A stretch of DNA of 64,000 nucleotides from Thermoleophilia bacterium (GCA_037133755.1 JBAXNN010000002.1:26595-90594), one strand, 5' to 3'. Shown: positions 1 through 64,000, counted from the first letter of the stretch. Notes: generated from the letters alone by a model not told the origin. Made by a program: numbers and translations.

Positions 1-1189
1 CGACCTCGACGATGCTGAGGACCGGTCCGAAGACCTCCTCGCGCGCGATCTCCATGTCGGCGGTGACGCCCTGGACGATCGTCGGGCCGACGTACGCGCC
101 CTCCTCGGACAGACCAGTCGAGCGGCCGTCGATGGCCAGCGTCGCGCCCTGCGCGAGGGCGTTATCGATCATGCCGCGGATGCGGTCGCGGGCCTCGCAG
201 GAGACGACGGGGCCGACGCTCGTGCTCGACTCCATGCCGTCACCGACGGTCAGCGCCTCGGTACGGGGCAGGAGCTCCTTGGCGAGGTCCTTCCACGCGC
301 CACCCACGGCGACGATGATCGAGCCGGCCATGCAGCGCTGGCCCGCAGCACCGAAGGCCGAGCCGATGATGTTGTCGGCCGTCTTGTCCATGATCGCGTC
401 GGGCATGACGAGCATCGAGTTCTTCGCACCGCCGAGCGCCTGGACGCGCTTCTTCTTGGCGGCCGCGCGCTCGTAGATGTACGCGGCGGTCGAGGCCGAG
501 CCGACGAACGAGACGGCGTCGATGCCCGGATGGTCGAGGATGCCGTTGACGACATCGCGCGAGCCGTTGACGAGGTTGACCACGCCGTCGGGCAGACCGA
601 GCTCGTGGATGATCTCGAACACGATCTGCTGCGTCATCGGGACCTGCTCCGACGGCTTCAGGATGAACGTGTTGCCGCAGGCGATCGCGAAGGGCAGGAA
701 CCACATCGGGACCATCGCCGGGAAGTTGAACGGCGTGATCGCGGCGCAGACGCCGACGGGCTGGCGAATCGTCTCGGTGTCGATCTTCGTGGCGACGCCC
801 TCGAGGATGCGTCCCTGCATCGTCGTCGGGATTGCGGTGGCGCACTCGACCATCTCGATCATGCGGGCCACCTCGGCCTGCGCGTCGGGATACGTCTTGC
901 CCATCTCGCGGGTCGCGGTCGCGGCGATCTCATCGGCGCGCTTGACGAGCTGCTCGCGGAAGCCGAAGAGCCAGCGGGCACGCTCGATCGTGCTCTTGGC
1001 CTTCCACGCGGGGAAGGCGGCACGCGCAGCTTGGACGGCGGCGTCGACGTCGTTGGCACCCGACAGCGGGACCTGGGCGAGGACCTCGCCGGTAGCGGGG
1101 TTCGTGATGTCCAGCAGCTCGGAGCTGGTGGACGGCACCCAACCGCCGTTGATGTAGTTCGGCAGGATCTTCGTTGCGGTCGCGCTCAT
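1..1189 (-). CDS. mmsA: Methylmalonate-semialdehyde dehydrogenase (CoA-acylating), partial; C-terminus lies outside the window
   Basis: The frame runs off the window edge, so it is absent from the ORF track. My translation from the ATG at 1189 reads MSATATKILPNYINGGWVPSTSSELLDITNPATGEVL...AITPFNFPAMVPMWFLPFAIACGNTFILKPSEQ. This is an aldehyde dehydrogenase fold with an MmsA-type N-terminus. Confidence 0.85.
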   Translation of the reverse strand, partial: MSATATKILPNYINGGWVPSTSSELLDITNPATGEVLAQVPLSGANDVDAAVQAARAAFPAWKAKSTIERARWLFGFREQLVKRADEIAATATREMGKTYPDAQAEVARMIEMVECATAIPTTMQGRILEGVATKIDTETIRQPVGVCAAITPFNFPAMVPMWFLPFAIACGNTFILKPSEQVPMTQQIVFEIIHELGLPDGVVNLVNGSRDVVNGILDHPGIDAVSFVGSASTAAYIYERAAAKKKRVQALGGAKNSMLVMPDAIMDKTADNIIGSAFGAAGQRCMAGSIIVAVGGAWKDLAKELLPRTEALTVGDGMESSTSVGPVVSCEARDRIRGMIDNALAQGATLAIDGRSTGLSEEGAYVGPTIVQGVTADMEIAREEVFGPVLSIVEV

Positions 1190-1244
1190 ATCTCGATGCA
1201 CCTCAAAGGGGACGTTGGTGATGGGTGGATGCTAGCCGCGCAGC

Positions 1245-1673
1245 CTACGCGGCGGCGCGTTCCATCAGCTGGCGCTTGACGCGCGCCAGGATGGCTCCGA
1301 CGCTGCGCATACGCAGCGGGGAGACGACCTCGATCAGGCCAAGACCCGCCGCGAAGTCGGACGGGGTGCCGAGCACCTCGTCGATCGTGCAGCCGTCGAG
1401 GCCCGCGTGGATGATGCCCGCGAACCCCTTCGACGTCGGTGCCTCATCGGGCGCCGCGAAGTAGAGGCGGACAACGTCACCGTCCTCGATCTCGGCGTGC
1501 ACGAACAGCGGCGTCTGGCATTCGTCCACCCGCTCGAGATCCTGCCCTTCGAAGCGGGCCGGCAGAGCGGGCAGGTCGTTGGCGTACTCAAACAGCAGGT
1601 CGAGGCGCTCGGTGCGGTCGACCTCCTGAAATTCGCCGACGATCTCGGCGAGGCGCGGGGGCAGCTCGCTCAC
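1245..1673 (-). CDS. SufE-like sulfur acceptor protein
   Basis: This is the C-terminal part of ORF 1245..1916. It contains [13 protein letters not shown] (SufE active-site Cys context) and [20 protein letters not shown] start at 1673 overlaps the upstream stop as GTGA. Confidence 0.7.
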
Positions 1674-2548
1674 GCAGGCTTCTCGATCGGCACGCGCACG
1701 GCGTTGCCCCACTCGACCCACGAGCCGTCGTAGTTGCGGACGTGCTCGAAGCCAAGCAGGTGCGTGAGGACGAACCACGTGTGGCTCGAGCGCTCGCCGA
1801 TGCGGCAGTACGTGATGACATCGTCGCCGGCCTTCATGCCGAGCTCGCCCTCGTAGATGCCGCGCAGGTCCTCGACCGACTTGAACGAGCCGTCGTCGTT
1901 GGCGGCGCGCTTCCACGGCACGTTCTGCGCGGTCGGCACGTGCCCGCCGCGCTGCACGCCCTCCTGCGGATAGTCGGGCATGTGCAGCAGCTCGCCGGAG
2001 AACTCGCCGGGCGAGCGCACGTCGACGAGGGGACCGTTGCCGATGTGCTTGAGCACGTCCTCCTTGAAGGCGCGGATCGTCGCGTCATCGCGCGGCACGA
2101 CGGGGTACGTGCTCGGCGTCGCCACGGTAGCGTCGGTCGTCATGTCGCGGCCCTCGGCGACCCACTTGGCGCGGCCACCGTCGAGCAGGCGCACGTCGGC
2201 GTGGCCGAAGAGGCTGAAGACCCAGAGGGCGTACGCGGCCCACCAGTTGAAGTTGTCGCCGTAGACCACGACCGTCGAGTCGGGCGTGATGCCGCGGGCG
2301 CTGCACATGGCGGCGAACGCCTCGGGCGAGACGTAATCGCGCATCACGTCGTCGTTGAGATCTAGATGCCAGTCGACGTGATGGGCGCCGGGGATGTGGC
2401 CCGTGCGGTAGAGCAGCACGTCCTCGTTCGACTCGATTACGACGAGGCCGTTGTCGCCGAGGTGCTCGGCGAGCCAGTCGGTCGTGACGAGGCGCTCCGG
2501 ATGGGCGTAGGCCTGGAGCTTGGATGCGGAATCAGCGGCGATCGTCAT
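1670..2548 (-). CDS. Thiosulfate sulfurtransferase (tandem rhodanese domains)
   Basis: ORF 1670..2587, with the start taken at [26 protein letters not shown]. It contains [15 protein letters not shown] (rhodanese active-site loop, CRxGxR). Confidence 0.85.
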
Positions 2549-2620
2549 GAGGTCCTCAGATGATGGAGTGCGGCACGGTGGAGCCATGCCGAATGGTAGG
2601 AGTGCTTCGTACTTCTGGGG

Positions 2621-3331
2621 TCAGAGCGGTGCGAGTCGATCCACGATCCGGTCGAGCGGCGACCAGAACGCGGACTGCGCGGCGGGGGTGCTCTGCAGAG
2701 CGGAGAGATGGCCGTACGTGCAGTCGTCGTCCGACGCCAGCACGCGTACCGCGGCCGGATGCGGCGCAATCGAGTTGACGATCGACGCTGCCCCGCGCTC
2801 GCCCACAACCTGATCCCGGTCGCCGACGAGCATCGTGACCGTCGTGGTCGGGGGCACGACGAGCGGGCCGCGATCGTGACCGCGGACGAAGTACGGGAAC
2901 ACGCCGAAGACCGCAGACGGCACGGGGATGCCCCAGCGCTCGGCCTCCGCGGCCGCCACGACGGCGAGGCCCGCGCCGTACGAGTAGCCCGCGGCGATCA
3001 ACGGCCGGTCGGTCAGGCCGAGCTCGGCGAGACCATCGCGCACGCCGGCGACGGCACCGGCCAGCATCTGCCGGCGCGACGATCGCAGGCTCGCCTGATA
3101 GCGGGGAAACACCACGGTGACGTTGCGCCCCGTGAGGTGACGGATCCACTGCAGGTAGTTGCGGGGCGTGCGGTCGCTCCAGCCGTGCAGCAGCACGACC
3201 GTGGCGCGCGACTCGCCGTCAGGGTGAAAGACGTCGGCCGTGCCAGCCTCGACCGTGGCGGCATCCGACGGCGGACCTTCCCACGTCGCTGCCAGCTTGG
3301 AGACGGCCAGAGCGGGGAGGGGAGTACGCAT
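2621..3331 (-). CDS. Alpha/beta hydrolase family protein (no signal peptide seen)
   Basis: 236 aa with VVLLHGW, a GYSYG nucleophile-elbow-like motif and an LVGDRDQVVG acid loop. It is a paralog of the next gene. Confidence 0.6.
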   Translation of the reverse strand: MRTPLPALAVSKLAATWEGPPSDAATVEAGTADVFHPDGESRATVVLLHGWSDRTPRNYLQWIRHLTGRNVTVVFPRYQASLRSSRRQMLAGAVAGVRDGLAELGLTDRPLIAAGYSYGAGLAVVAAAEAERWGIPVPSAVFGVFPYFVRGHDRGPLVVPPTTTVTMLVGDRDQVVGERGAASIVNSIAPHPAAVRVLASDDDCTYGHLSALQSTPAAQSAFWSPLDRIVDRLAPL

Positions 3332-3376
3332 GCTCCCTGCTCTTCGCGCACCGTGGAGCGCGCGGACTGCGCCGCC

Positions 3377-9716: not shown

Positions 9717-11107
9717 TCGACCTCTCGCGCGCCGGCTCGATCGACCAGCCCGATGGCGCAGGGAGCGCCGGTGGTGGACGCTGCGACGACCGCGTGCGCT
9801 TCACCCTGCGCCTCGCCGGCGAACGCCTTGCCGAAGTGCGCTTTGGTGCCGACGCCTGCGCCTCGACGACCGCGGCCGCCGCGTGGCTGGCCGAGGCGGC
9901 AGAGGGAAGCGGGCTGCTCGACGCCGCACGGCTTGGGCTCACCGACGTGCTGGCCGGCACGACGATCGACTCGCCCGAGTGCGCGCTCACCGCCGTCGAC
10001 GCGCTGCACGCAGCGCTGGGTGATGCCGTCGTGCGCGGTGCGTCGATCGCCGCCGACCCGCACCGTGTGGGCATCGCCATGAGCGGTGGGGTCGATTCCG
10101 CGATGGTGTTGACGAGCGCGGTGGAGGAGGGGCACGAGGCGGTTGGGCTGACGCTGCGCCTCTGGATCGACCCGGATGCCCCAAATCCCGAACGCGCCTG
10201 CTGCGCGCCGAGTGCCGTGCGCGCCGCGCGCGATCTGTGCCACGCCAAGGGCATGCCGCACTTCATGCTCGACCTGCGCGAGGACTTCCGCGCCGCGGTG
10301 GTCGAGCCGTTCGTGGCGGGCTACGCCGCGGGCGAGACGCCCAACCCGTGCGCCACGTGCAACGGCGCCTTCCGCTTCGACGCCATCGACGCCATCGCTA
10401 CGGCCCTCGGCTGCAGCGAATGGCGCACCGGCCACTACGCGCGACTCGTCGAGCGAGACGGTGCGCTGCTGGTGGCGCGGGGTGCCGACCCGGATAAGGA
10501 CCAGTCGGCCATGCTCGCGCTGGTCGACCCGGCGATTCTCGCCCGCGTGCGGCTGCCGCTGGGCGAGCGCATCAAGCGCGACGTGGTCGCCGAGGCCGGC
10601 GCGAAGGGGCTCGCCGCGGCGAAGGCGCCGGAGAGCCAGGAGGTGTGCTTCCTCGGCGGTGGTGAGTTGGCGCCATTCCTCGAACGGCAGGGCGTCGAGT
10701 TGGTTCCCGGCCCGATCGTCGACGAACAGGGCGTGGAGCTCGGTACGCACCACGGTGCCGTGGCCTTCACGCCAGGTCAGCGCCGCGGCCTCGGCGTGTC
10801 GCGCGGCACCGACGCGCTGTACGTGCTCAAGGTCGATGCACTGTCCAACACCGTCGTGGTCGCCACGCTCGAACGCCTCGGCCGCCGCGAGGTTGAACTG
10901 CGCGACGTGCGCCTGCGCGTGCCCTGTGACCGCGTCGGCGCAAGCTTCCGGGTGCGCGCCGAGCCGATCCCCGCCGCGCTCGCTGCGCACGCCGACGGCA
11001 CGGCGACGCTGGTGCTCGACCGCGATGCCTTCCAGGTCGCCCCCGGCCAGGTCGCCGCGCTCTACGACGGCGACTGCATCGTGGCCGCCGGCGTCGTCGC
11101 CGGCTGA
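9713..11107 (+). CDS. mnmA: tRNA 2-thiouridylase MnmA with an N-terminal IscU/SufU-like domain
   Basis: 464 aa. Residues about 1-105 resemble a U-type scaffold with three Cys (GGGRCDD, GADACAST, SPECAL). The rest is MnmA: the PP-loop AMSGGVDS, NPCATCNGAFRF and ESQEVCF. Confidence 0.85.
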   Translation: MIDLSRAGSIDQPDGAGSAGGGRCDDRVRFTLRLAGERLAEVRFGADACASTTAAAAWLAEAAEGSGLLDAARLGLTDVLAGTTIDSPECALTAVDALHAALGDAVVRGASIAADPHRVGIAMSGGVDSAMVLTSAVEEGHEAVGLTLRLWIDPDAPNPERACCAPSAVRAARDLCHAKGMPHFMLDLREDFRAAVVEPFVAGYAAGETPNPCATCNGAFRFDAIDAIATALGCSEWRTGHYARLVERDGALLVARGADPDKDQSAMLALVDPAILARVRLPLGERIKRDVVAEAGAKGLAAAKAPESQEVCFLGGGELAPFLERQGVELVPGPIVDEQGVELGTHHGAVAFTPGQRRGLGVSRGTDALYVLKVDALSNTVVVATLERLGRREVELRDVRLRVPCDRVGASFRVRAEPIPAALAAHADGTATLVLDRDAFQVAPGQVAALYDGDCIVAAGVVAG

Positions 11108-11144
11108 CGGCTCGGCGTTCGCAATCGCGTACCCTGCCGGGGCA

Positions 11145-13784
11145 ATGCTGGCTCACGAAATCCGCGCCGCCTATCGGAACCACTTCGAGCAGAACGGGCA
11201 TCTCGTCATGCCCTCGGCGAGCCTCGTGCCCGCATCGCTCGATCCGTCGGTGCTGCTCACGACCGCAGGCATGCAGCCGTTCAAGCCGTTCTTCCTCGGT
11301 CTCGACACGCCGCCGGCCACGCGCCTGACGAGCGTGCAGAAGTGCTTCCGCACGACGGACATCGACGAGGTCGGCAAGACCGCGCGTCATCTCACCTTCT
11401 TCGAGATGATGGGCAACTTCTCGTTCGGCGACTACTTCAAGGCCGGCGCCATCGAGTTTGCGTGGACGCTCGTCAGCGGCGCGTGGCAGATGGACACCGA
11501 CAAGGTGTGGATCACGGTCTTTGCCGGCGACGACCAGGTGCCCGGTGACGACGAGGCGCGCGAGCTCTGGCTCGCCCAGGGCGTGCCCGCCGAGCGCATC
11601 GTCGGCCTCGGCCGCAAGGACAACTTCTGGCAGGCCGGCCCGACCGGACCCTGCGGCCCGTGCAGCGAGCTCTACTACGACCGCGGCGTCGAGCACGGCT
11701 GCGGACGTCTCGCTGGCCCTGACGGCTGCAAGCCGGGCTGCGACTGCGACCGCTTCCTCGAGTTCTGGAACCTCGTGTTCATGCAGTACGACCAGGCCGA
11801 GGATGGCTCGCTCTCGCCGCTGCCCAAGACGGGCGTCGACACGGGCGCGGGCGTCGAGCGCGTCGCCGCGCTGCAGCAGGGCGTGCACTCGGTCTACGAG
11901 ACCGACGGCTTCAAGGCGATCATCGCCGCGATCGAGGAGTGGACCGGCACGTCGTACGAGTCTGGCGGCATCCACACCAAGGCGCTGCGCGTGCTCGCCG
12001 ACCACGGCCGCGCGATGACGTTCCTCGCCGCCGACGGCGTATTGCCCGCCAACGAGTCGCGTGGCTACATCCTGCGCCGCGTCATCCGCCGCGCCGTCTC
12101 GCACGGCCATCGCCTCGGCATCAAGGGCACGTTCCTCGAGCGCCTCGCCGATCTCGTGATCACGCAGCTCGGCGACGTCTACCCCGAGCTGGTGCAGAAC
12201 CGCGACGACGTGATCCGCATTCTCAGCGGCGAGGAGGAGCGCTTTCTTCGCACCCTCGAGACCGGCACGACCCAGTTGGAGGAGCGAATTGCGCGCGTCC
12301 GCGCCGAGGGCGGCACCGCGCTGCCCGCCGCCGACGCCTTCCTCCTGCACGACACCTATGGCTTCCCGTTCGAGCTCACGCAAGAGCTCGTCGCCGAGCA
12401 GGATCTCTCGGTCGACGAGGCCGGCTTCGCCGAGCTGATGGAGGCACAGCGCCAGCGCGCTCGCAGCGCCGCCGGCAAGGGTAGCGGTGTCGACATGGAC
12501 AAGGTCGCCGCGTTCGCGCGCGAGGCCGGGTTCGTAACGGAGTTCGTCGGCTACGACCAGAACGACATCCGCACGCGCATCGGTGCCCTCACCGACGTCG
12601 GCGATGGCCGCATTACCGTGAAGCTGCGCGAGTCGCCGTTTTATCCCGAGGGTGGCGGCCAGGTCTCCGACGCCGGCCACATCGAGTCCGACACGGGCCG
12701 CGCCGCGATCGTCGACGTGATCCGCTTCGATAAGGACCAGACGCTGATCGTCGTCATGGAGCACGGCGAGTTGATGGAAAACCAGGAGGTGCGCGCGATC
12801 GTCGATACGACGACTCGCCGCCCGACGCAGGCCAACCACACCGGTACGCACGTGCTGCATCGCGCGCTGCAGGAGGTGCTCGGCGACCACGTTCGTCAGA
12901 AGGGCTCGTCCGTGCGTCCCGACAAGCTGCGCTTCGACTTCTCGCACGAGACCCCGCTGACGCCGGAGGAGCTGGCGCGCGTTGAGGACATCGTCAACCG
13001 CGTCGTCATCGAGGGGCACCGCGTCTTCACGTTCGAGACCTCGCAGGACGAGGCGCGCGAGCTCGGCGCGATGATGCTGTTTGGCGAGAAGTACGGCGAC
13101 GTCGTCCGCGTGGTCGAGATCGAAGGCTTCTCCCGCGAGCTCTGCGGTGGCACGCACGTGGCCACGACGGCCGAGATCGGCCCGATGCGCATCGTGTCGG
13201 AGTCGAGCGTCGGTCAGGGCGTGCGTCGCATCGAAGCCGTCACCAGCGGTGTCGCGATCGACCTGCTGCGCCAGCGCGAGCGCGCGGCTGACGAGGCGTC
13301 GAAGGCGCTCAAGGTCGGGCCCGAGCGCCTGCCCGAGGCCGTCCGCGATCTGCAGGCCAAGGTGCGCGAGCTCGAGAAGCAGCTGAAGGCCGGCGGTGGG
13401 TCCGCGGGTGGTGCAGCCGTCGACGAGCTGGCTGCGCAGGCGCAGGAGCGCGGTGGCGTGAAGCTCGTGGCTGCCGGGGTGGGCGAGATCGCCCCCGACG
13501 CGCTGCTCGAGCTGGCCGATCATCTGCGTGGCGCGCTCGGCTCGAGCGTCGTGCTGCTGATCGGCGAGAACGCGGGCAAGGTCGCGCTGATCTGCGCGGC
13601 GACGCCGGAGGCCGTGGCCGCCGGTGCCGACGCGGGTGCCGTGATGAAGGTCGCAGCGCCGCTCGTGGGTGGTGGCGGTGGTGGCAAGCCGAATCTGGCC
13701 CGTGCCGGTGGCAAAGACGCCAGCGGCATCCCCGCTGCGCTCGAGGCAGGCCTCGCGGCTCTCGCCGACCAGCTGCCGGCCTGA
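11145..13784 (+). CDS. alaS: Alanine--tRNA ligase
   Basis: The start is taken at MLAHEIRAAYRNHFEQNGH, in frame with ORF 10176..13784. It contains FFEMMGNFSFGDYFK, WNLVFMQY and a C-terminal DHHA1-like GGGGGKPNLA. Confidence 0.95.
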   Translation: MLAHEIRAAYRNHFEQNGHLVMPSASLVPASLDPSVLLTTAGMQPFKPFFLGLDTPPATRLTSVQKCFRTTDIDEVGKTARHLTFFEMMGNFSFGDYFKAGAIEFAWTLVSGAWQMDTDKVWITVFAGDDQVPGDDEARELWLAQGVPAERIVGLGRKDNFWQAGPTGPCGPCSELYYDRGVEHGCGRLAGPDGCKPGCDCDRFLEFWNLVFMQYDQAEDGSLSPLPKTGVDTGAGVERVAALQQGVHSVYETDGFKAIIAAIEEWTGTSYESGGIHTKALRVLADHGRAMTFLAADGVLPANESRGYILRRVIRRAVSHGHRLGIKGTFLERLADLVITQLGDVYPELVQNRDDVIRILSGEEERFLRTLETGTTQLEERIARVRAEGGTALPAADAFLLHDTYGFPFELTQELVAEQDLSVDEAGFAELMEAQRQRARSAAGKGSGVDMDKVAAFAREAGFVTEFVGYDQNDIRTRIGALTDVGDGRITVKLRESPFYPEGGGQVSDAGHIESDTGRAAIVDVIRFDKDQTLIVVMEHGELMENQEVRAIVDTTTRRPTQANHTGTHVLHRALQEVLGDHVRQKGSSVRPDKLRFDFSHETPLTPEELARVEDIVNRVVIEGHRVFTFETSQDEARELGAMMLFGEKYGDVVRVVEIEGFSRELCGGTHVATTAEIGPMRIVSESSVGQGVRRIEAVTSGVAIDLLRQRERAADEASKALKVGPERLPEAVRDLQAKVRELEKQLKAGGGSAGGAAVDELAAQAQERGGVKLVAAGVGEIAPDALLELADHLRGALGSSVVLLIGENAGKVALICAATPEAVAAGADAGAVMKVAAPLVGGGGGGKPNLARAGGKDASGIPAALEAGLAALADQLPA

Positions 13785-30298: not shown

Positions 30299-31966
30299 AT
30301 GCTGGAGCGGCTCCAGGTCGACAACCTCGTCGTCCTCCGCTCCGCGGAGATCGAGCCTGCGTCCGGGATGACGGTGATTACCGGCGAGACGGGCGCCGGC
30401 AAGACGATCCTCGCTGGTGCACTCGGGCTGGTACTCGGCGCCAAGGGCGAAGCCGGCCTCGTCGGCCCACATGCCGAACAGGTCGAGGTCGAGGCCACCT
30501 TCCGCATTACCGAGGGAATGCTTCGGGACGACGCATTCGATGGTGTGCGCGAACTCGTCGACGACGTCGATGACGGGCTGCTCGTCTCTCGCCGCCTCGG
30601 GGCAGACGGTCGCGGTCGCACGCTCGTACAGGGGCGGAGCGCCACGCGTGGTGCGCTCGAGGAGGCCGGGGGCAGGCTAGTTGGCGTGGTCTCGCAGCAC
30701 GAGTCGCGTCGTCTGGCCAAGCCCGCTGCGCAGCGAGCGATTCTCGACGCCTTCGGTGGTGACAAGCAGGCCGACAAGGTGACCGCGATGGCCGCCGCCT
30801 GGCGTGCGCTCGTGGCAGCACGCGTAGCGCGTGAGGAAGCCGAGACGGAGGCTGCTGGTCTGGCCGGTCGGATCAGCGAGCTCGAAGGCATTGCCGAGCG
30901 CATCGCGGAGATCCAGCCGCGCACGGGCGAACTCGACGAGCTCGAGGCCGAGCGTCAGCGCCTGCGCTACGCCGACGTCCTCGCGGAGGGGACCTCGGGT
31001 GCCGCTGCGCTCCTATCGCCCGACGAGGGGGCTGGCGCGCTGGGCATGACCGGCGAGGCCGAGCGCGCTGTGCGAGCTGCCGCAGCGCGCGACCCCGAAC
31101 TGGCGCCCATTGCCGACGAGCTGCGCGAGGCTGTGATTCGCCTCGAGGAGGCGTCGCGTTCGCTGCACGCCTACGCCGATGGCATCGAGCACGACCCTGC
31201 GCGTCTTGAGCAGGTGGAGGCACGGCTGGATCGCCTGACCGACCTCGTGCGCCGCCACGGATCGCTGGAGGAGGCAATCGCCGCCGGGGAGGAGGCCGAG
31301 CGCCTGCTCGCCGTTGCGCGCGGCGACGCTGGCGGCCTCGATGCCGTGCGCGCCGCCGAGGCTGCGGCGCAGGCCGCTGCTGTCGATGCCGCAGCTGCGC
31401 TCACGAAGGCGCGCGCCACGCTCGGGCCGAAGCTCGCGAAGGCCGTCCAAGGCCATCTTGCCGATCTCGGCATGGCCGACGCAGCGGTCGAGATCGAGCT
31501 GGCCGAGCGCGACCTCGGCGTGTCGGGTGCCGACGAGGTACGCATCCTGCTGGCCCCCAACCCGGGTCTCAAGCCGGCGCCGATCGCCGACGCCGCCTCG
31601 GGAGGCGAGCTCTCGCGCGTGGCGCTCGCGCTGCGCGTTGCTGCGCACGACCGCGATGCCGTCCCCACGTTGGTCTTCGATGAGGTCGATGCGGGTGTCG
31701 GCGGCGCCACCGCGGTCGCCGTCGGGCAGAAGCTCCGCGAACTCGCGGGCTCGACGCAGGTGATCGTGATCACGCACCTCGCGCAGATCGCGGCACTCGC
31801 CGATCGTCACTATCGCGTGCTCAAGGTCGCTGGCGACCCCACAGAGACGACGATCGAGGTCCTCGACGATGCCGGTGTCGACGCCGAGTTGGCGCGCATG
31901 CTCGGGGGCGACGCCTCGGCTACCGAGGCGTTGGACCTGGCACGCAAGTTGCGAGCCAGCGCCTGA
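30299..31966 (+). CDS. recN: DNA repair protein RecN
   Basis: 555 aa with the Walker A motif ITGETGAGKTIL, a long coiled-coil middle region, ASGGELSRVALAL and LVFDEVDAGVGG. Confidence 0.9.
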   Translation: MLERLQVDNLVVLRSAEIEPASGMTVITGETGAGKTILAGALGLVLGAKGEAGLVGPHAEQVEVEATFRITEGMLRDDAFDGVRELVDDVDDGLLVSRRLGADGRGRTLVQGRSATRGALEEAGGRLVGVVSQHESRRLAKPAAQRAILDAFGGDKQADKVTAMAAAWRALVAARVAREEAETEAAGLAGRISELEGIAERIAEIQPRTGELDELEAERQRLRYADVLAEGTSGAAALLSPDEGAGALGMTGEAERAVRAAAARDPELAPIADELREAVIRLEEASRSLHAYADGIEHDPARLEQVEARLDRLTDLVRRHGSLEEAIAAGEEAERLLAVARGDAGGLDAVRAAEAAAQAAAVDAAAALTKARATLGPKLAKAVQGHLADLGMADAAVEIELAERDLGVSGADEVRILLAPNPGLKPAPIADAASGGELSRVALALRVAAHDRDAVPTLVFDEVDAGVGGATAVAVGQKLRELAGSTQVIVITHLAQIAALADRHYRVLKVAGDPTETTIEVLDDAGVDAELARMLGGDASATEALDLARKLRASA

Positions 31967-32634
31967 TGCGCGTCGTCGATCTGACCCAGCCCTTGTCGCC
32001 GGGCACGACGCCTTGGCCGGGCGAGCAGCCGTTGCGCATCGAGGAGCACGCCAACGTCCCAGCCGACGGGTACTACGCGCGCCGCATCGACCTTCACGAG
32101 CACACGGGCACGCACTTCGACGCCCCGGCGCACTTCGTCGAAGGCGGTGCCACCGTCGATGAGATCGCCGCCGGCCGCCTGGTCGTGCCGGTCCGCGTCG
32201 TCGACGTATCCGGCCAGGCCTCTGAGAATCCCGACTACGCCGTCACGGTCGACGACATCTACGCGATGGAGCGCGAGCACGGCGAGCTTCAACCGGGTGA
32301 CGCGCTGCTCGCCCTGACTGGCTGGGACATGCACCTCGGGGATCCCGAACGGTACGTGGGCGCCATGCGGTTTCCCGGCTTCAGCGCGGAGGCCGCCGAT
32401 CTCGTCGTCGATCGCGGCCTCGCGGGCATCGGCATCGACACGCTGTCGGTCGACCGCGGCTGCGACGACACGTACCCCGTGCATCACCGCACGCTGCCGG
32501 CCGGGCTCTGGCAGCTCGAGGGTCTCGTCGGTCTTGATCTGATTCCCGTCGTGGGCGCCATGCTCGTCGTTGGCGTGCCGCCGGTGGTGGGTGCTTCGGG
32601 GTTTCCGGCGCGCGTGCTCGCACTCGTGCCGTGA
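31966..32634 (+). CDS. Cyclase-family protein (kynurenine formamidase-like)
   Basis: 222 aa with the motif HTGTHFDAPAHF. It has a TGATG overlap with recN. Confidence 0.75.
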   Translation: MRVVDLTQPLSPGTTPWPGEQPLRIEEHANVPADGYYARRIDLHEHTGTHFDAPAHFVEGGATVDEIAAGRLVVPVRVVDVSGQASENPDYAVTVDDIYAMEREHGELQPGDALLALTGWDMHLGDPERYVGAMRFPGFSAEAADLVVDRGLAGIGIDTLSVDRGCDDTYPVHHRTLPAGLWQLEGLVGLDLIPVVGAMLVVGVPPVVGASGFPARVLALVP

Positions 32635-32643
32635 GTCGTCTGA

Positions 32644-34362
<1,719 letters not shown>

Positions 34363-59183: not shown

Positions 59184-60650
59184 ATGGCTGCAACCGAGAC
59201 TAGTTCCAACGTGGCGGCGCGCACCGGCGCCGAATTCCTCGAGGGTCTGCGCAACGACAAGGATCGCGAGATCTGGATCGGCGGCGAGTGCGTCACGAAC
59301 CCGATGGATCACGAGTTCCTGGCCACGGGTGCCGAGGCGATCGCGCGCGTCTTCGACACGCAGCACGAGCACGCCGAGGTCTGCCTCGCGCCGAATCCCG
59401 ATGACGGCCGCCTCGTCAACCGCACGCACCTGATCCCGCGCAGCAAGGACGATCTCGAGAAGCGCCGTGCGTCGATGGAGATCATCGCGGGCGCGACGGG
59501 CGGGATGATGGGCCGCGTCCCCGACTACCTCAACGTGACGTTCGCCTGCTTCGCCGGAGCGTCGGAGGTGTGGGCGCGCCGCGGCAACGAGCGCGGCGCG
59601 GAGAACATCGTCAACTACCAGAAGCTGATGCGCGATCGGGATCTCTCGACGACGCACGCGATCATGAATCCCGTCGCTGACCGCTCGAAGTCGGATGCCC
59701 AGCAGATGGGCGGCGAGATCTCCCTGCACAAGGTTGGCGAGTGCGCGGAGGGCATCATCGTCCGTGGCGCGCGCATGCTCGCGACCCTCGCGCCGTTCGC
59801 CGACGAGATCTCGGTCTATCCCGGCTCGCCCCTGCAGGAGGGTGACGAGGCCTACGCGCTTGCGTTCGCGCTGCCGATGTCGACGCCGGGCCTGCGGTTC
59901 ATCTGCCGCGATTCGTTCGCGAAGCCGAAGAGCACCTTCGACTACCCGTTGAGCGCGCGCTTTGACGAGATGGACGCCGTCGTGATCTTCGACGACGTCG
60001 TCGTGCCCTGGGATCGCCTCTTCCTCGACGGCGATCTCGAGGGTTACGACGAGGTCATCACCGACTCCGGCTGGCGTGGCCACATCATGCACCAGGCCTT
60101 CACCCGGTCCTACGTGAAGCTGATGTTCGCGTTCGGGCTCGGCCACGCGATGGCGCAGACCACGGGCGTGGCGCGCTTCGACCACATCCAGGAGAAGCTC
60201 GGCCAGATCTGGAACATGACCGAGCTCACGCGCTCGGCGCTCGTTGCCGCGGAGGCCGATTCGTTCCTCGACAACCACGGCGTCTGGTATCCGCATGATC
60301 GCCCGCTGATGGCGCTGCGCGGCGAGATGCCGAAGTGGCTGCCCCGTACGCACGAGCTGCTGCAGCTGATCGGCGGCGGGTCGTTCATGGCGACCCCGTC
60401 CGAGGCCGACTTCAACTCGGCGATCCGCGGCGACATCGAGAAGTACTTCCAGGCCGCCGGTGGCAACGCCGAGCAGCGTGTACGCATCTTCCGTCTCGCG
60501 TGGGACTTCATCGGCTCCGACCTCGGCGGGCGCAGCGAGCTCTACGAGCGCTTCTACCTGTCGGACTCGTGGCGGATGACGCAGCTGGCCTACCGCACGG
60601 CGGACACCACGTTCGCCGAGTCGCTGGTCGACCAGTTCATGCACGACTAA
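59184..60650 (+). CDS. HpaB-family (4-hydroxyphenylacetate 3-monooxygenase-like) flavin-dependent oxygenase component
   Basis: The start is at MAATETSSNVAARTGAEFLEGLRND, preceded by GGAGGA. It is 488 aa with GGMMGRVPDYLN and NPVADRSK. The length and N-terminus are typical of the HpaB family. Confidence 0.8.
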   Translation: MAATETSSNVAARTGAEFLEGLRNDKDREIWIGGECVTNPMDHEFLATGAEAIARVFDTQHEHAEVCLAPNPDDGRLVNRTHLIPRSKDDLEKRRASMEIIAGATGGMMGRVPDYLNVTFACFAGASEVWARRGNERGAENIVNYQKLMRDRDLSTTHAIMNPVADRSKSDAQQMGGEISLHKVGECAEGIIVRGARMLATLAPFADEISVYPGSPLQEGDEAYALAFALPMSTPGLRFICRDSFAKPKSTFDYPLSARFDEMDAVVIFDDVVVPWDRLFLDGDLEGYDEVITDSGWRGHIMHQAFTRSYVKLMFAFGLGHAMAQTTGVARFDHIQEKLGQIWNMTELTRSALVAAEADSFLDNHGVWYPHDRPLMALRGEMPKWLPRTHELLQLIGGGSFMATPSEADFNSAIRGDIEKYFQAAGGNAEQRVRIFRLAWDFIGSDLGGRSELYERFYLSDSWRMTQLAYRTADTTFAESLVDQFMHD

Positions 60651-60833
60651 TCGGATTTTTCCGATGACTCTGTCTGAATAGATCGGCTTCCCTTTCGAGG
60701 GTCGCGACCGATGGTCCGGGCGTGCGGCTGGCGCGACGGCTTCCGTAGTAAACCGCGCTTGCGTTCGCGTAGATCGCCGTAGTACCGTCCGGTGCACGGT
60801 GTCCGTCCGGCACCTCTCTGCCTGGAGCGCCCC

Positions 60834-63800
60834 GTGAACCCGAATCGCCGTTCGATCTTCCTTCGTAGCGGTGTGGCGGCGACGGCGCTGGTGGGCGCGG
60901 CCTTCATTGCGGGTCCGGCTGCTGCGGCTGAGCAGGGAGCAGCGGTCGACGCGTCGACGTCGCGCGTGGCGCGTGCCACGGGCGAGGTGCCTCAGACGCT
61001 GCCCGACTTCCGTGCGCTGATCTCGAGCGAGGCCGGCTGTGTCGCCAACGCCGAGTACATGGCCCGTCACCTGCAGTGGTCGGTCAACAGTCCGCGTGTC
61101 AGCCAGAGCACGGTCGTGCGCGTGATCGCGCGTATCAAGCGGGCGTCGGCGCCGTGCAACAACTTGCTGTTTCGCAACGGCAATCGGGTGCATCCCGATG
61201 CCGGCATCCTGACGGGCAACGGCTTCAGCTTCAAGGCAGCCACCTGCACTGGCGCCGAGGCATGCGACGGCGGTAACGGCGGCCTGCTGATGGGTTCCGG
61301 TGGCAACGGCGCCAACGGCGGTGACGGCGGCGACGCCGGCTGGTACAGCGGTCGTGCCGGCAACGGCGGCGACGCGGTTGTGGCAGGCCAAGACGGCGGC
61401 GACGGCGGCCGCGCCGGTCGCGTCGGCGCGGGCGGCAATGGCGGCGCTGGCCTGGAGAGCGGCGACGGCGGCAATGGCGGCAGGGGCGGCCTCCTGAGCG
61501 GCAACGGCGGCAATGGCGGTAACGGCGGCAGCGCGACGACGGCGGGCCAGGCTGGTGGCGATGGCGGCGCCGGTGGTCGTGCCGTGGCGAAGAAGGGCGT
61601 CGGCGGCCGCGGCGGGGCAGGCGGGGCAGGCGCGGCAGGCGCCGCGGGGGCGACCGGCACAACCGGGTCCGGTGTCGGGGTCGCTGGCGGAACCGGTGGC
61701 AACGGCGGTAACGGTGGCAGCGGTGGCAACGGTGGTGCTGGCGGCAGTGCACCCAAGGGAGTCGCAGGCAACGGCGGCGCCGGCGGTGCTGCGGGCAACG
61801 CAGGCAACGGCGGTGCAGGCGGTGCGGGCTACGACGGCGTCACAGCCGGCGAGAACGGCTCGAGCGGCGGCACGGGCGGCCTGTCCGGCACGCCGGGCGC
61901 AGCGGGCAAGGGTGGCGCCGCGGGTGCCGGCGCAGCCGCAGGTTCCGCTGGCGCGGCAGGTGACGCCGCGTCGGTCGCCGTCGCGGGTGCTGGCGGTCGA
62001 GGCGGCAACGGCGCTGGAGCACTTGCCAACGTCGCGGGTGCCAGTGGTGGCAACGGCGGCACAGGTGGTGCCGCCACGGGCAGTGGTCGCGCGGGTGCCG
62101 GCGGCATTGGCGGCAACGGCGGCGCTGGCGGTACCGGCACGGCGGGTACGCTGACGGCAGTAGCCGGTGTCGGCAAGGCCGGCGGTAGCGGTGGCAACGG
62201 CGGTACCGGCGGTGTGGCGGCTACGGGAGTGGCCGGAGCTGGCGGGGTTGGCGGTAACGCAGGCGTAGGTGGTACCGGTGGCGCCGGATTCAACGGCGTT
62301 GGCGCCAATGGCGCCAACGGTGGTGCAGCGGGCGCGGCAGGTAACGGCGGCACCGGAGGAGCGACCACGTCGGGTACCGCCGGCGTTGGCGGTGCCGGCG
62401 GCGACGGCGCACGCGGTGGCAGTGGCGGCCTTGGCAATCTCGGGGGTAACGGCGGCAACGGTGGAGCGGCAGGTGCTGGCGGTGCCGGTGGTTCGGGCGG
62501 CAGTGCGGCCTCCGGAGGCACCAACGGCAACGGCGGCGCAGGCGGCAATGGCGGTGCCGGCGGATCCGGAGCCAACGGCGGCGCCGGTGACCCAATCGCA
62601 GGTGCTACGGCGAACGGTGGCAATGGCGGCAACGGCGGAGCCAGTGCCGCAGCTGGTACGGGAGGTTCCGCTGGTAGCGGTGGTATCGGTGGCGCGAGCG
62701 GCGCCAGTGGTACCGCTGCCACTGCGAGCAACGGCGGCAACGGCGGTGCTGGCTGGGACTCGACTGTCGCGGGCGTGGCGGGCGGCGTGGGTGGTAACGG
62801 CGGTGATGTTGGTAGCGGTGCGGGTGGTAGCGGCGGTAACGGTGGTGCCGGGGGCGCCGGCTTCGTCGGCGTTGACGCAACCGCCTTGGCCGCCGCGTCG
62901 GCGGGTACGAGCGGGGGTAGCGGAGGTGCCGGGGGTGCATCAACGAGCGGCAATGGTGGCGCGGGTGGCGCGGGTGGCGCGGGTGGCGCCGGTGGCGACG
63001 GCCTCGTCGGCGGTGCGCAGGCGCTTGCAAGCGGCGAGGCCGGCGGTACTGGTGGCGCGGGTGGCGCTGGCGGTTCAGTGAGGACAGGGATCGCCGGCAA
63101 TGGCGGCGCGGGCGGAGGAGCCGGCGCAGGCGGCGACACCGCTGTCGGCGCGTCTGGTGTGATCGGACAGGTCGGCGGTCCGGGCCGCAGCGGCGGCGCG
63201 GGCGGCGCTGGTGGAGACGCGACGGGTGGCCGTGCGGGCAACGGCGGCGCTGGCGGTGCTGGAAGCACCGGAGGCGCGGGCGGCGGGTCCAACCTCAGCG
63301 GCAACTCCGGCGGCAACGGCGGTGCCGCGGGTGCCGGCGGGGCCGGCGGTCCTGGCGGAAATGCGGCCGGCACCAACGGAAATGGCGGCAATGGAGGTAG
63401 GGCCGGCAACGGCGGCGCAGGTGGCGCGGGCTTGGCTGGCACGCTTGGCAATGCGGGTACGTCGGGCGGCGCGGGTGGCTCGGCCACTGCTGCCCCCGGC
63501 GCCGCAGGCGCAGCAGGTTCTGGCGCCGGCTCGGCGGGCACTGCGGGCACCGCTGGTGCCTACGGCAATGGTGGCGCGGGCGGCGCTGGCGGCGCTGGCT
63601 TCGTCGGCGTCGATGCCACGAACGCAAGCGCTTCCGTGGCTGGTACCAGCGGTGGCAGTGGCGGTGCCGGCGGCGATGCGACCGGTGGGAACGCGGGTAA
63701 CGGCGGCAACGGTGGCAACGGCGGCAACGGCGGCAACGGCTTTTCGCCCGTGGCCAATCCCGGTGGGTCGAATGGTGGCAGCGCTGGTAGCGGCGGCGCT

Positions 63801-64000
63801 GGCGGCGCTGCGACAACAGGCTCCGGTGGTAACGGCGGTGCCGCCGGCACCGCGGGCAATGGCGGTAACTCGCTTGGCGGCTCTGCGAGCGGCGGTGCTG
63901 CAGGCAGCGGTGCCGCTGGCGGCGCGGGTGGTACGAGCAGCGGCAGCGGCGGCAACGGTGGCAACGGCGGTAACGGTTCGTCTGGCGGTAACGGCGGCAC
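60834..64000 (+). CDS. Large secreted glycine-repeat (PGRS-like) protein, partial; continues beyond the window
   Basis: The frame is open from GTG 60834 (GGAG lies 7 nt upstream) to the window end, more than 1055 codons, so it is not in the ORF track. The N-terminus VNPNRRSIFLRSGVAATALVGAAFIAGPAAAAEQ looks like a Tat/Sec signal. A four-Cys domain follows, then continuous GGxGGxGG repeats (GGNGGLLMGSGGNGANGGDGG...). Confidence 0.75.
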   Translation, partial: MNPNRRSIFLRSGVAATALVGAAFIAGPAAAAEQGAAVDASTSRVARATGEVPQTLPDFRALISSEAGCVANAEYMARHLQWSVNSPRVSQSTVVRVIARIKRASAPCNNLLFRNGNRVHPDAGILTGNGFSFKAATCTGAEACDGGNGGLLMGSGGNGANGGDGGDAGWYSGRAGNGGDAVVAGQDGGDGGRAGRVGAGGNGGAGLESGDGGNGGRGGLLSGNGGNGGNGGSATTAGQAGGDGGAGGRAVAKKGVGGRGGAGGAGAAGAAGATGTTGSGVGVAGGTGGNGGNGGSGGNGGAGGSAPKGVAGNGGAGGAAGNAGNGGAGGAGYDGVTAGENGSSGGTGGLSGTPGAAGKGGAAGAGAAAGSAGAAGDAASVAVAGAGGRGGNGAGALANVAGASGGNGGTGGAATGSGRAGAGGIGGNGGAGGTGTAGTLTAVAGVGKAGGSGGNGGTGGVAATGVAGAGGVGGNAGVGGTGGAGFNGVGANGANGGAAGAAGNGGTGGATTSGTAGVGGAGGDGARGGSGGLGNLGGNGGNGGAAGAGGAGGSGGSAASGGTNGNGGAGGNGGAGGSGANGGAGDPIAGATANGGNGGNGGASAAAGTGGSAGSGGIGGASGASGTAATASNGGNGGAGWDSTVAGVAGGVGGNGGDVGSGAGGSGGNGGAGGAGFVGVDATALAAASAGTSGGSGGAGGASTSGNGGAGGAGGAGGAGGDGLVGGAQALASGEAGGTGGAGGAGGSVRTGIAGNGGAGGGAGAGGDTAVGASGVIGQVGGPGRSGGAGGAGGDATGGRAGNGGAGGAGSTGGAGGGSNLSGNSGGNGGAAGAGGAGGPGGNAAGTNGNGGNGGRAGNGGAGGAGLAGTLGNAGTSGGAGGSATAAPGAAGAAGSGAGSAGTAGTAGAYGNGGAGGAGGAGFVGVDATNASASVAGTSGGSGGAGGDATGGNAGNGGNGGNGGNGGNGFSPVANPGGSNGGSAGSGGAGGAATTGSGGNGGAAGTAGNGGNSLGGSASGGAAGSGAAGGAGGTSSGSGGNGGNGGNGSSGGNGG

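Follow-up and report, generated by a model that had tools for sequence, protein, structure and literature searches.

The PE/PPE/PGRS family is repeatedly called unique to Mycobacterium in the tuberculosis literature (for instance in PMC6016250 and PMC8430768), and according to a 2025 review no recognisable PE or PPE domain has been reported outside this genus (PMC11939664). The Gly-rich arrays of its PGRS members have been modelled as sandwiches of polyglycine II (PGII) helices, forming a "sail" whose hydrophobic straight edge is placed in the mycomembrane (PMC9436101). Here we analyse a stretch of 64,000 nucleotides (nt) from a Thermoleophilia bacterium assembly (GCA_037133755.1, JBAXNN010000002.1:26595-90594; hereafter the window), which ends inside a plus-strand gene for a Gly-repeat protein starting at position 60834. 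The locus encodes a PGRS-type array behind a conserved cap and what looks like an ordinary signal peptide, in a Thermoleophilia organism.

With a probability of about 0.6, we read this locus as a genuine accessory gene whose secreted product forms a sheet of PGII or polyproline II (PPII) helices, a strain-variable, water-exposed extracellular or cell-surface material. New here is a PGRS-type array that combines a general secretory (Sec) signal with a small N-terminal module, lacks a hydrophobic edge and occurs in a non-mycobacterial actinobacterial class. Our literature search found no paper linking PGRS-type arrays to Thermoleophilia, Gaiellales or Nanopelagicales, and the homologues are known in databases only as unnamed or partial hypothetical proteins. 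The finding suggests that the PGRS-like repeat architecture extends beyond the mycobacteria and probably predates them, and it makes an evolutionary question testable, namely whether the array was first a Sec-exported extracellular module that was later fused to PE for ESX export. The locus thus bears on the origin of PE_PGRS proteins and provides a candidate for a very large natural PGII sheet; as a natural variant without the hydrophobic edge, the array may also be used to probe the sail model and PGII-sheet folding.

Results and Discussion

A genuine gene behind hpaB

The frame that opens at GTG 60834 comprises 1,055 codons up to position 64000 and, as a first-pass annotation of this DNA had claimed, contains no stop, compared with 2–27 stops in each of the remaining five frames of this region. 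The protein continues past position 64000, which places its C-terminus outside the window and its length above 1,055 residues. An apparent TGA at 63079, already set aside by the annotation as out of frame, is offset by one nucleotide relative to the GTG frame and closes the out-of-frame open reading frame (ORF) 62269-63081. The gene is missing from the ORF track, because ORFs running off the window end are not listed there. Instead, the track holds antisense Pro-rich frames (45–46% Pro) and +1-frame Ala/Val fragments, as had been described, and in addition Arg-rich antisense frames (37% Arg).

As the DNA has a G+C content of 75% and an antisense frame is open over 702 codons in the same region, the length of the open frame alone is weak evidence. 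The start is preceded by a Shine-Dalgarno-like motif (Table 1), and the nearest in-frame stop upstream of it ends at 60782. Between the two, GTG 60792 is the only other start candidate; the 20 nt preceding it hold no purine motif of Shine-Dalgarno type. The G+C content at third codon positions (GC3) is 0.81 in the non-repetitive N-terminal part and 0.88–0.94 in neighbouring genes. An orthologous N-terminus was found directly downstream of hpaB in four other assemblies (L005, L014, L105 and L106). The L005 orthologue is 56% identical over 176 amino acids (aa), and L105, which is the NCBI Thermoleophilia assembly GCA_037137955.1, encodes protein P0167 with 80% identity to the window protein. The ratio of nonsynonymous to synonymous substitution rates (dN/dS, Nei-Gojobori) against L005 is 0.43 over 238 codons, with 0.69 for the N-terminal module and 0.32 for the cap plus proximal array. 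Given the homologues at the same position, the GGAG motif, dN/dS below 1, the GC3 values and a conserved block in the distal array described below, the Gly-repeat frame is a genuine gene. The antisense Pro-rich frame was rejected as the true gene, since the sense frame is the one conserved at the same position with dN/dS below 1.

A promoter and terminator consensus scan of 60500-61000 and scans of the window for tRNA genes and Rfam families found nothing. The search for the missing C-terminus led to a 1.8-kb Logan contig, the only one with the exact HpaB protein, from which the C-terminus was not recovered, and a metagenome scan for the C-terminus did not return the window's own contig.

Signal peptide and N-terminal module

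All sequence elements quoted in the first-pass annotation are present: the repeat strings, the four Cys and, at the N-terminus, NRRSIF, a hydrophobic core and AAAA|EQ. The signal peptide has an n-region with R5, R6 and R11 and the h-region SGVAATALVGAAFIAGP, and cleavage is predicted at AAA|EQ, after Ala32. It had been described as twin-arginine-like, which does not hold: the RR pair is unique to the window copy (NRRSIFL), with NRPKIF, TSKIF and PKLF in orthologues, and no Tat-signal family is among the Pfam or NCBIfam matches at E≤1. We therefore rejected a Tat substrate. The signal peptide looks like a classical one of Sec type, and export would most likely proceed by Sec.

The four Cys of the N-terminal part (C69, C108, C138 and C144) had been assigned to a single domain of about 125 aa. 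They are in fact distributed over two units, a helical module with two Cys and a cap with the other two, the latter belonging to the array. In the AlphaFold2 (AF2) models, a linker of low confidence opens the N-terminal module; two helices span aa 64-83 and 91-104, and a third at aa 106-113 enters the cap; the predicted local distance difference test score (pLDDT) is 78–94 over aa 61-110. The annotation's claim of a new module stands insofar as no curated family covers it (no Pfam or NCBIfam match at E≤1), and fails insofar as the module is not unique to this protein, since a phmmer search and the resulting alignment (A2) reveal it in at least 12 metagenomic proteins. Among the 12 aligned homologues, C108 is invariant and C69 at least 90% conserved.

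Alignment A2 was too diverse for the locus search, for which the smaller alignment A3 was used instead. A word-index search with the first 149 aa gave nothing at E≤0.001, and a contig scan with exact N-terminal peptide patterns found no relatives; the exact patterns proved too stringent, given the homologues present in L005 and L014. As a side observation, the 750-aa protein P0103, composed of tandem units of about 65–70 aa (…GNQCPTGKHSPFRCENAPGSEMGGPPLHAYFRRL…), matched the N-terminal query at E 1.2e-8, which we regard as a spurious, repeat-driven match to an unrelated protein.

The cap and its family

The array is opened by a cap with the layout LFRNGxxxHPDAGILTGNGFSF…C138…C144.GGNGGLLMGSGGNGANGG…AGWY. 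It fits the family pattern (N/D)G..HP(D/N)AG.L.GNG(F/Y)S…C…C.GG..G.L, which stands ahead of a GGX array. Across alignments of 66 and 80 proteins, the cap residues G116, P121, G124, G128 and G130 do not vary, and conservation of C138 and C144 is at least 90%; AF2 models the cap with a pLDDT of 94–97.

A full phmmer scan of a representative library gave 77 matches, at least 12 of which share the N-terminal module while most others share the cap only. It is through the cap that both the phmmer scan and a word-index search pick up the family. With the whole protein as query, 91 metagenomic or genomic Gly-array proteins were found at E-values down to 3.7e-24. In all family members that we read (P0001-P0004, P0007, P0009, P0010, P0025, P0142, P0161 and others), the array is opened by the same cap. 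Several full-length members also show, by eye, an N-terminal hydrophobic signal-like segment. Cap-array modules are fused to PhoX, an FGE-sulfatase, GH12, a GH5 cellulase, a beta-lactamase fold and a TNT toxin, and further to a lactonase propeller, a PecA protease and a C39-like peptidase, and the annotations read "hypothetical protein", "cellulase family glycosylhydrolase" or "PecA family…". This range of enzymes and toxins points to a general display or scaffold role of the module. In P0002, two cap-array units are present, each followed by the same uncharacterised domain.

The hosts of family members comprise Mycobacterium, Mycolicibacterium, Nanopelagicales and Thermoleophilia genome assemblies. 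The cap is also present in Mycobacterium and Mycolicibacterium proteins without a detectable PE domain (for example P0057, P0068, P0080 and P0119). Among the matches listed, database-level E-values reach 2.4e-31, and those bearing a Mycobacteriaceae name range from 4.4e-16 to 1.7e-4; a composition-corrected pairwise BLASTP comparison with P0119 of Mycobacterium sp. DL592 gave an E-value of 0.002. The array had been proposed to be an independent deployment of a PGRS-type fold. As the conserved cap is common to many actinobacterial Gly-array proteins, metagenomic ones and mycobacterial ones without PE included, we do not consider it an independent invention; by sequence homology it belongs to a cap-plus-array family spread through the Actinomycetota.

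Most other cap-plus-array proteins of this phylum add an enzyme or toxin domain, whereas the subfamily of the window protein carries the small helical N-terminal module only. Its complete members are array-only proteins that end in proper stops (P0095 with 370 aa, L090 with about 392 aa and L087 with about 1,130 aa), and on reading their three sequences we saw neither another domain that is not Gly-rich nor a C-terminal anchor of LPXTG or hydrophobic type. Like these complete relatives, the window protein may consist of array to its very end.

The Gly-repeat array

The array covers aa 124-1055 (about 930 residues), in line with the more than 900 residues of GGxGG-type units originally noticed, and consists of 46% G, 20% A, 8% N, 13% S+T and 0.9% Pro. 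It contains 84 GG.GG motifs, and the Gly autocorrelation is 0.49 at lag 3, with no long-range periodicity beyond lag 3–12. Large hydrophobic residues (L/I/M/F/W/Y) account for 3.9% of the array, compared with 12–13% in four mycobacterial arrays. Over aa 261-1055 their share is 3.0%, next to 46% G and 22% A. Lys and Arg are very scarce in the array, which leaves hardly any tryptic sites.

A block of 281 residues in the distal array is conserved in the open frame of L084, a metagenomic homologue (Table 1). The two blocks align with 368 bits, 64% aa identity and 8 gaps, as opposed to 197 ± 8 bits for 30 triplet shuffles, and their identity at non-Gly positions is 40%, against 20–28% for any other array. 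As nucleotide identity in this block is only 61–65% and thus below aa identity, the protein was conserved while synonymous sites drifted. Since dS is saturated, the dN/dS value of 0.12 against L084 is indicative only. The local orthologous block with its triplet-shuffle control replaced a global colinear alignment of the distal arrays against L084, which was dropped because it scored 512 bits compared with 480 ± 11 bits for block-shuffled sequences, with dS saturated as well. In L084 (open frame nt 145-3357), the distance between cap and conserved block is about 350 residues greater than in the window protein; arrays therefore appear to change by large indels while keeping specific blocks. Within the window protein, aa 713-1055 resemble aa 432-712 (270 bits, 52% identity), and this likeness suggests an internal duplication.

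At the DNA level, repeats inside the array are only 60–82% identical, because synonymous codons are mixed, and all copy spacings listed are divisible by 3, most of them by 9. We found no near-identical long repeats and no sign of an assembly collapse, a concern raised in the first-pass annotation. The mixed codons may reflect selection against slippage or recombination. GC3 of the array (window 61281-64000) is 0.69, compared with 0.88–0.94 in neighbouring genes, and GGT makes up 30% of its Gly codons.

Predicted fold

AF2 was run on residues 33-400 with 66 sequences and on all 1,055 residues with 80 sequences. The first run gave a pLDDT of 89–97 from the helical module through the cap into the first array segments and 80–93 over the next stretch, and predicted no strands beyond isolated bridges. 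In the full-length model, pLDDT is mostly 85–97 over aa 61-180, drops to 44 near aa 191-200 between the cap and the proximal array, reaches 88–95 over aa 211-300 except for one block at 81, and is 56–88 over aa 301-390. It falls to 32–45 over aa 401-480, rises to 49–75 over aa 481-630 and is about 33 beyond aa 720. DSSP assigned neither helix nor strand anywhere in the array of this model.

A Foldseek search of the PDB returned at E<1 solely PPII-bundle antifreeze proteins, led by 7jjv with E-values of 8.8e-4 to 8.5e-3, and with the full-length model also 3bog and 2pne at E 0.36–0.47. A structure search of a viral model library gave no match (best E 0.52), and the sequence search of the PDB returned only collagens at E 0.16–0.98, none of them significant. 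A PGII/PPII sandwich is the best-supported fold, in which the models are confident only for about aa 115-390. A comparison of polyglycine II bundle and beta-roll, suggested by the first-pass annotation, hence comes out in favour of the PGII type in both AF2 and Foldseek predictions. The low confidence of the distal array may reflect a thin, register-ambiguous alignment, and a purely disordered chain would hardly be expected to hold a block as conserved as aa 432-712.

Relation to PE_PGRS proteins and other Gly-rich systems

With mycobacterial PE_PGRS proteins, the window protein shares long GGX/GGxGG arrays of about 46% Gly, an array length that varies greatly between relatives, and a predicted fold without helix or strand, consistent with the PGII type. 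The repeats are PGRS-like, with a borderline Pfam match: against the PGRS model (PF21526, gathering threshold 27) the whole fragment reaches 24.9 bits and the segment of residues 33-400 reaches 27.2 bits, with the match spanning aa 162-221, and 35 of the 66 aligned relatives match the model at E≤0.01. The entry into the array also looks similar, as the PE_PGRS layout GRPLIGNGANG…GGLLxGNGG has a counterpart in AG-ILTGNG…GGxGGLLxGxGG of the window protein. This comparison was made by eye on the PE-containing P0087, where GRSLIGNGANG…GGPGGLLYGNGG corresponds to AGILTGNGFS…GGNGGLLMGSGG in the window protein, and we regard the likeness of the two sequences as a lead.

The differences start with the PE domain (PF00934, about 110 aa), which is absent, as the annotation had stated: at E≤1, Pfam searches with either the whole fragment or aa 1-159 gave PGRS only. 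The GRPLI motif before the array is absent too, with HPDAGILTGNGFS at the position where P0087 has GRSLIGNGANG. Neither PE nor a YxxxD/E secretion signal was found in the window protein, and a putative classical signal peptide takes the place of ESX-5 targeting, which speaks for Sec export. Further differences are the Thermoleophilia host, the helical N-terminal module and the cap with its presumed disulfide. Mycolic-acid outer membranes are not known outside the Mycobacteriales. In view of the 12–13% large hydrophobics of mycobacterial arrays, the edge proposed to embed PGRS domains in the mycomembrane is essentially missing from the window array. We therefore place the protein in the cap-array family, as the carrier of a PGRS-type array, and do not count it among the PE_PGRS proteins.

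The springtail and snow-flea antifreeze proteins (7JJV, 3BOG and 2PNE), the best and essentially sole structural matches, are Gly-rich, disulfide-stabilised bundles of tripeptide-repeat PPII helices with small-residue surfaces. They differ in being eukaryotic and in having 81–126 residues in 6–9 helices compared with more than 900 array residues, and there is no detectable shared ancestry. The adhesin tips of phage long tail fibres (gp38 class) are likewise Gly-rich PGII-helix sandwiches that serve as an extracellular, surface-exposed scaffold (10.1101/2023.11.25.568672, PMC12892980). Unlike these, the window protein has no viral structural match and no phage genes nearby, and its size and cap are different.

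Proposed role and alternatives

In the reading that we favour, the precursor would be exported unfolded by Sec and cut after Ala32, and disulfides C69-C108 and C138-C144, suggested by the conservation of these residues, would form outside the cytoplasm; disulfides have been reported to stabilise PPII bundles (bioRxiv 10.1101/2023.11.25.568672). The helical N-terminal module and the cap would fold first and may seed the folding of the GGX array, which is predicted to stack back and forth as layered, antiparallel, left-handed helices of three residues per turn with Gly pointing inward. The same class of PGII/PPII fold has been put forward for the PGRS domains of mycobacteria and is seen in the solved structures of springtail antifreeze proteins. 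The resulting product would be a long, flat sheet with an almost uncharged, hydrophilic surface of small residues. As the recurring Leu/Phe/Trp edge is missing and the surface would be hydrophilic, we expect a water-exposed sheet, not a membrane-embedded sail. Differing from strain to strain, it could serve as a coat, a matrix or an adhesive.

Several observations weigh against this proposal. In the full-length AF2 model, 555 of the 1,055 residues have a pLDDT below 50, among them the greater part of aa 400-480 and 714-1055. The alignment is thin and register-ambiguous in these parts, so that the predicted fold does not extend to about 60% of the array. The Foldseek matches have target-normalised TM-scores of 0.26–0.47 with a high root mean square deviation, and their scores stem partly from shared composition, with 23–34% sequence identity. 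The link to PE_PGRS proteins depends on a borderline Pfam score and on cap-only proteins, and composition-corrected BLASTP against P0087, the sole PE-containing PGRS protein compared, gave an E-value of 9.8. A C-terminal anchor or a catalytic domain could follow beyond the window, and the catabolic neighbours of the gene give no pointer to its function.

The low pLDDT values lead directly to a second explanation, which we consider possible, if on the whole unlikely: a secreted, mostly disordered protein, in which only the cap and the first 200–280 array residues fold, and the distal 650 or more residues form a flexible Gly/Ala chain acting as an entropic spacer, elastomer or gel, comparable to GGX silk or plant glycine-rich proteins. 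A pLDDT below 50 at aa 398-477 and over most of aa 714-1055 would be expected of such a chain, as would a distal array with 3.0% hydrophobics and no periodicity beyond lag 3–12, and large indels between homologues such as the roughly 350 extra residues that L084 has before the conserved block. Against it speaks above all that aa 432-712 are conserved position by position with L084 at saturated synonymous sites, which would be unusual for an entropic chain. Low pLDDT may, moreover, stem from poor alignment rather than disorder, and similar mycobacterial PGRS arrays were reported to be modelled with high confidence given deep alignments (PMC9436101).

A more far-reaching version of the proposed PGII/PPII sheet joins three claims, for which, taken jointly, we see a slim chance. 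Structurally, the protein would be a free-standing, hydrophilic PGII sheet of record size, Sec-exported by a non-mycobacterial actinobacterium, with about 70 PGII helices by rough estimate and by far the largest known. Functionally, it would act on water, ice or particle surfaces in seasonally frozen lakes, as a bacterial analogue of the springtail antifreeze proteins. Evolutionarily, the arrays of mycobacterial PE_PGRS proteins would have branched off late from an old, Sec-exported cap-array family spread through the whole phylum, adapting to ESX and becoming more hydrophobic.

An ice-binding function by itself, in which the protein would be a giant bacterial counterpart of the springtail PPII-bundle proteins secreted in winter-freezing lakes, appears very unlikely to us. 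The sole PDB fold matches are antifreeze proteins, the composition of 46% G, 20–22% A, small polar and few hydrophobic or charged residues resembles that of the snow-flea protein, and the carrier genomes come from temperate or boreal lakes, as judged from assembly names. The conserved Cys pairs would also suit such a bundle, since disulfides are reported to stabilise antifreeze proteins of this type (bioRxiv 10.1101/2023.11.25.568672). These points are offset by the occurrence of this composition and fold class in proteins of unrelated function, namely PGRS domains, phage tail-fibre tips and Obg. Furthermore, the protein is about 10 times longer than any known PPII antifreeze protein, and the cap family is also found in soil and host-associated mycobacteria.

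The frame might instead be non-functional: it could have arisen by chance from GC-rich DNA of low complexity, be left over from a pseudogene or stem from faulty assembly, with the antisense frame or no frame at all being expressed. This is hardly credible any more. Long frames do arise easily in this DNA, as the 702 open antisense codons illustrate, the array GC3 of 0.69 is well below that of the neighbours, and L002, the closest available genome, lacks the gene. The N-terminus is nevertheless conserved at the same position in four other assemblies with dN/dS below 1, complete homologues finish with proper stops, the distal block is conserved more in protein than in DNA, and the repeats are neither near-identical over long stretches nor spaced other than by multiples of 3 among the copies listed. 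We regard this explanation as already largely refuted.

Finally, a calcium-binding beta-roll of the RTX kind has next to no chance, as has a triple helix like that of collagen, and both were rejected. The repeat is secreted and rich in Gly and Asp/Asn as in RTX proteins, and seven nonapeptides of the GGXGXD/NXUX type recall the beta-rolls proposed in the older PE_PGRS literature (PMC5054227), but these lie scattered over 1,055 residues and form no tandem array, and no strands are predicted in the array by AF2. In the profile search that had been recommended, PGRS was the only Pfam family at E≤1, with neither an RTX nor a collagen family among the matches. The Gly period of 3 together with the collagen-only matches of the PDB sequence search is countered by a unit of GGX instead of GXY, a Pro content of 0.9% and the lack of significance of those matches.

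Genomic neighbourhood

The neighbouring HpaB is 81–98% identical to proteins of freshwater assemblies, almost all of them labelled Gaiellales, Thermoleophilia or Actinomycetota. The lakes of origin, judged from assembly names, include Lac Pavin, Mendota, Baikal, Loclat, La Plata and the Experimental Lakes Area. P0167, the closest protein match of the Gly-repeat protein, is labelled Thermoleophilia bacterium. On these protein matches, the host is a member of a freshwater Gaiellales/Thermoleophilia lineage and not a Mycobacterium, which agrees with the non-mycobacterial origin assumed at the outset. The surrounding genes are of catabolic and housekeeping type and encode a CN-hydrolase, RecX, an acyl-CoA dehydrogenase, an amino-acid permease, an FAA hydrolase, a glutamine-synthetase-like protein and AlaRS/GlyRS.

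The junction at the 3' end of hpaB (window 60651-60833; L002:11465-13343) is variable. A Gly-array gene stands there in the window, L005, L014 and L105, with an extra small minus-strand ORF between hpaB and the Gly-array gene in L014, whereas L002, L003, L007, L011, L013 and L018 have the order hpaB, GMC oxidoreductase and PPDK without a Gly-rich gene. In these six, the GMC oxidoreductase lies on the minus strand. L008 and L017 show gaps of about 2 kb at the junction. As most relatives have GMC oxidoreductase and PPDK instead, the Gly-array gene is accessory and sits at a variable junction.

All four short-read orthologues end at a contig end, 180–240 residues into the protein, and many database relatives carry the label "partial". 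Truncation at contig ends thus leaves this gene class poorly represented in databases, and public metagenome-assembled genomes systematically truncate or lose Gly-array genes of this kind.

Table 1. Coordinates of the Gly-repeat gene, its parts, its upstream neighbour and its truncated orthologues. Positions without prefix refer to the window.
Feature	Position	Strand	Remarks
HpaB-family monooxygenase	59184-60650		upstream neighbour of the Gly-repeat gene
Shine-Dalgarno-like GGAG	60824..60827	+	6 nt 5' of GTG 60834, read from sequence
GTG start and putative signal peptide (aa 1-32)	60834..60929	+	translation; orthologues share the layout
Lineage-restricted N-terminal module (aa 33-111)	60930..61166	+	AF2 helices, 12 aligned homologues
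Conserved cap opening the array (aa 112-179)	61167..61370	+	LFRNGNRVHPDAGILTGNGFSFKAATCTGAEACDGGNGGLLMGSGGNGANGGDGGDAGWYSGRAGNGG; holds C138 and C144
Proximal GGX array (aa 180-390)	61371..62003	+	AF2 mostly confident, neither helix nor strand
Distal GGX array (aa 391-1055)	62004..64000	+	cut at window end; rich in Ala, Asn, Ser and Thr
Conserved distal block (aa 432-712)	62127..62969	+	orthologous to aa 784-1070 of the L084 open frame
Truncated orthologues	L005:3360-4084; L014:9899-10429; L105:1952-2512; L106:599-1159		cut off at contig ends

Two further ORFs of the window deserve mention. An 807-aa ORF on the minus strand (31810-34233) matches no Pfam family at E≤1e-5 and overlaps a 571-aa ORF on the opposite strand (32647-34362). 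In the plus-strand ORF 10176-13784, the alanyl-tRNA synthetase domain begins only at residue 328; the first 327 residues are probably due to a mechanical ORF start and not a true N-terminal extension.

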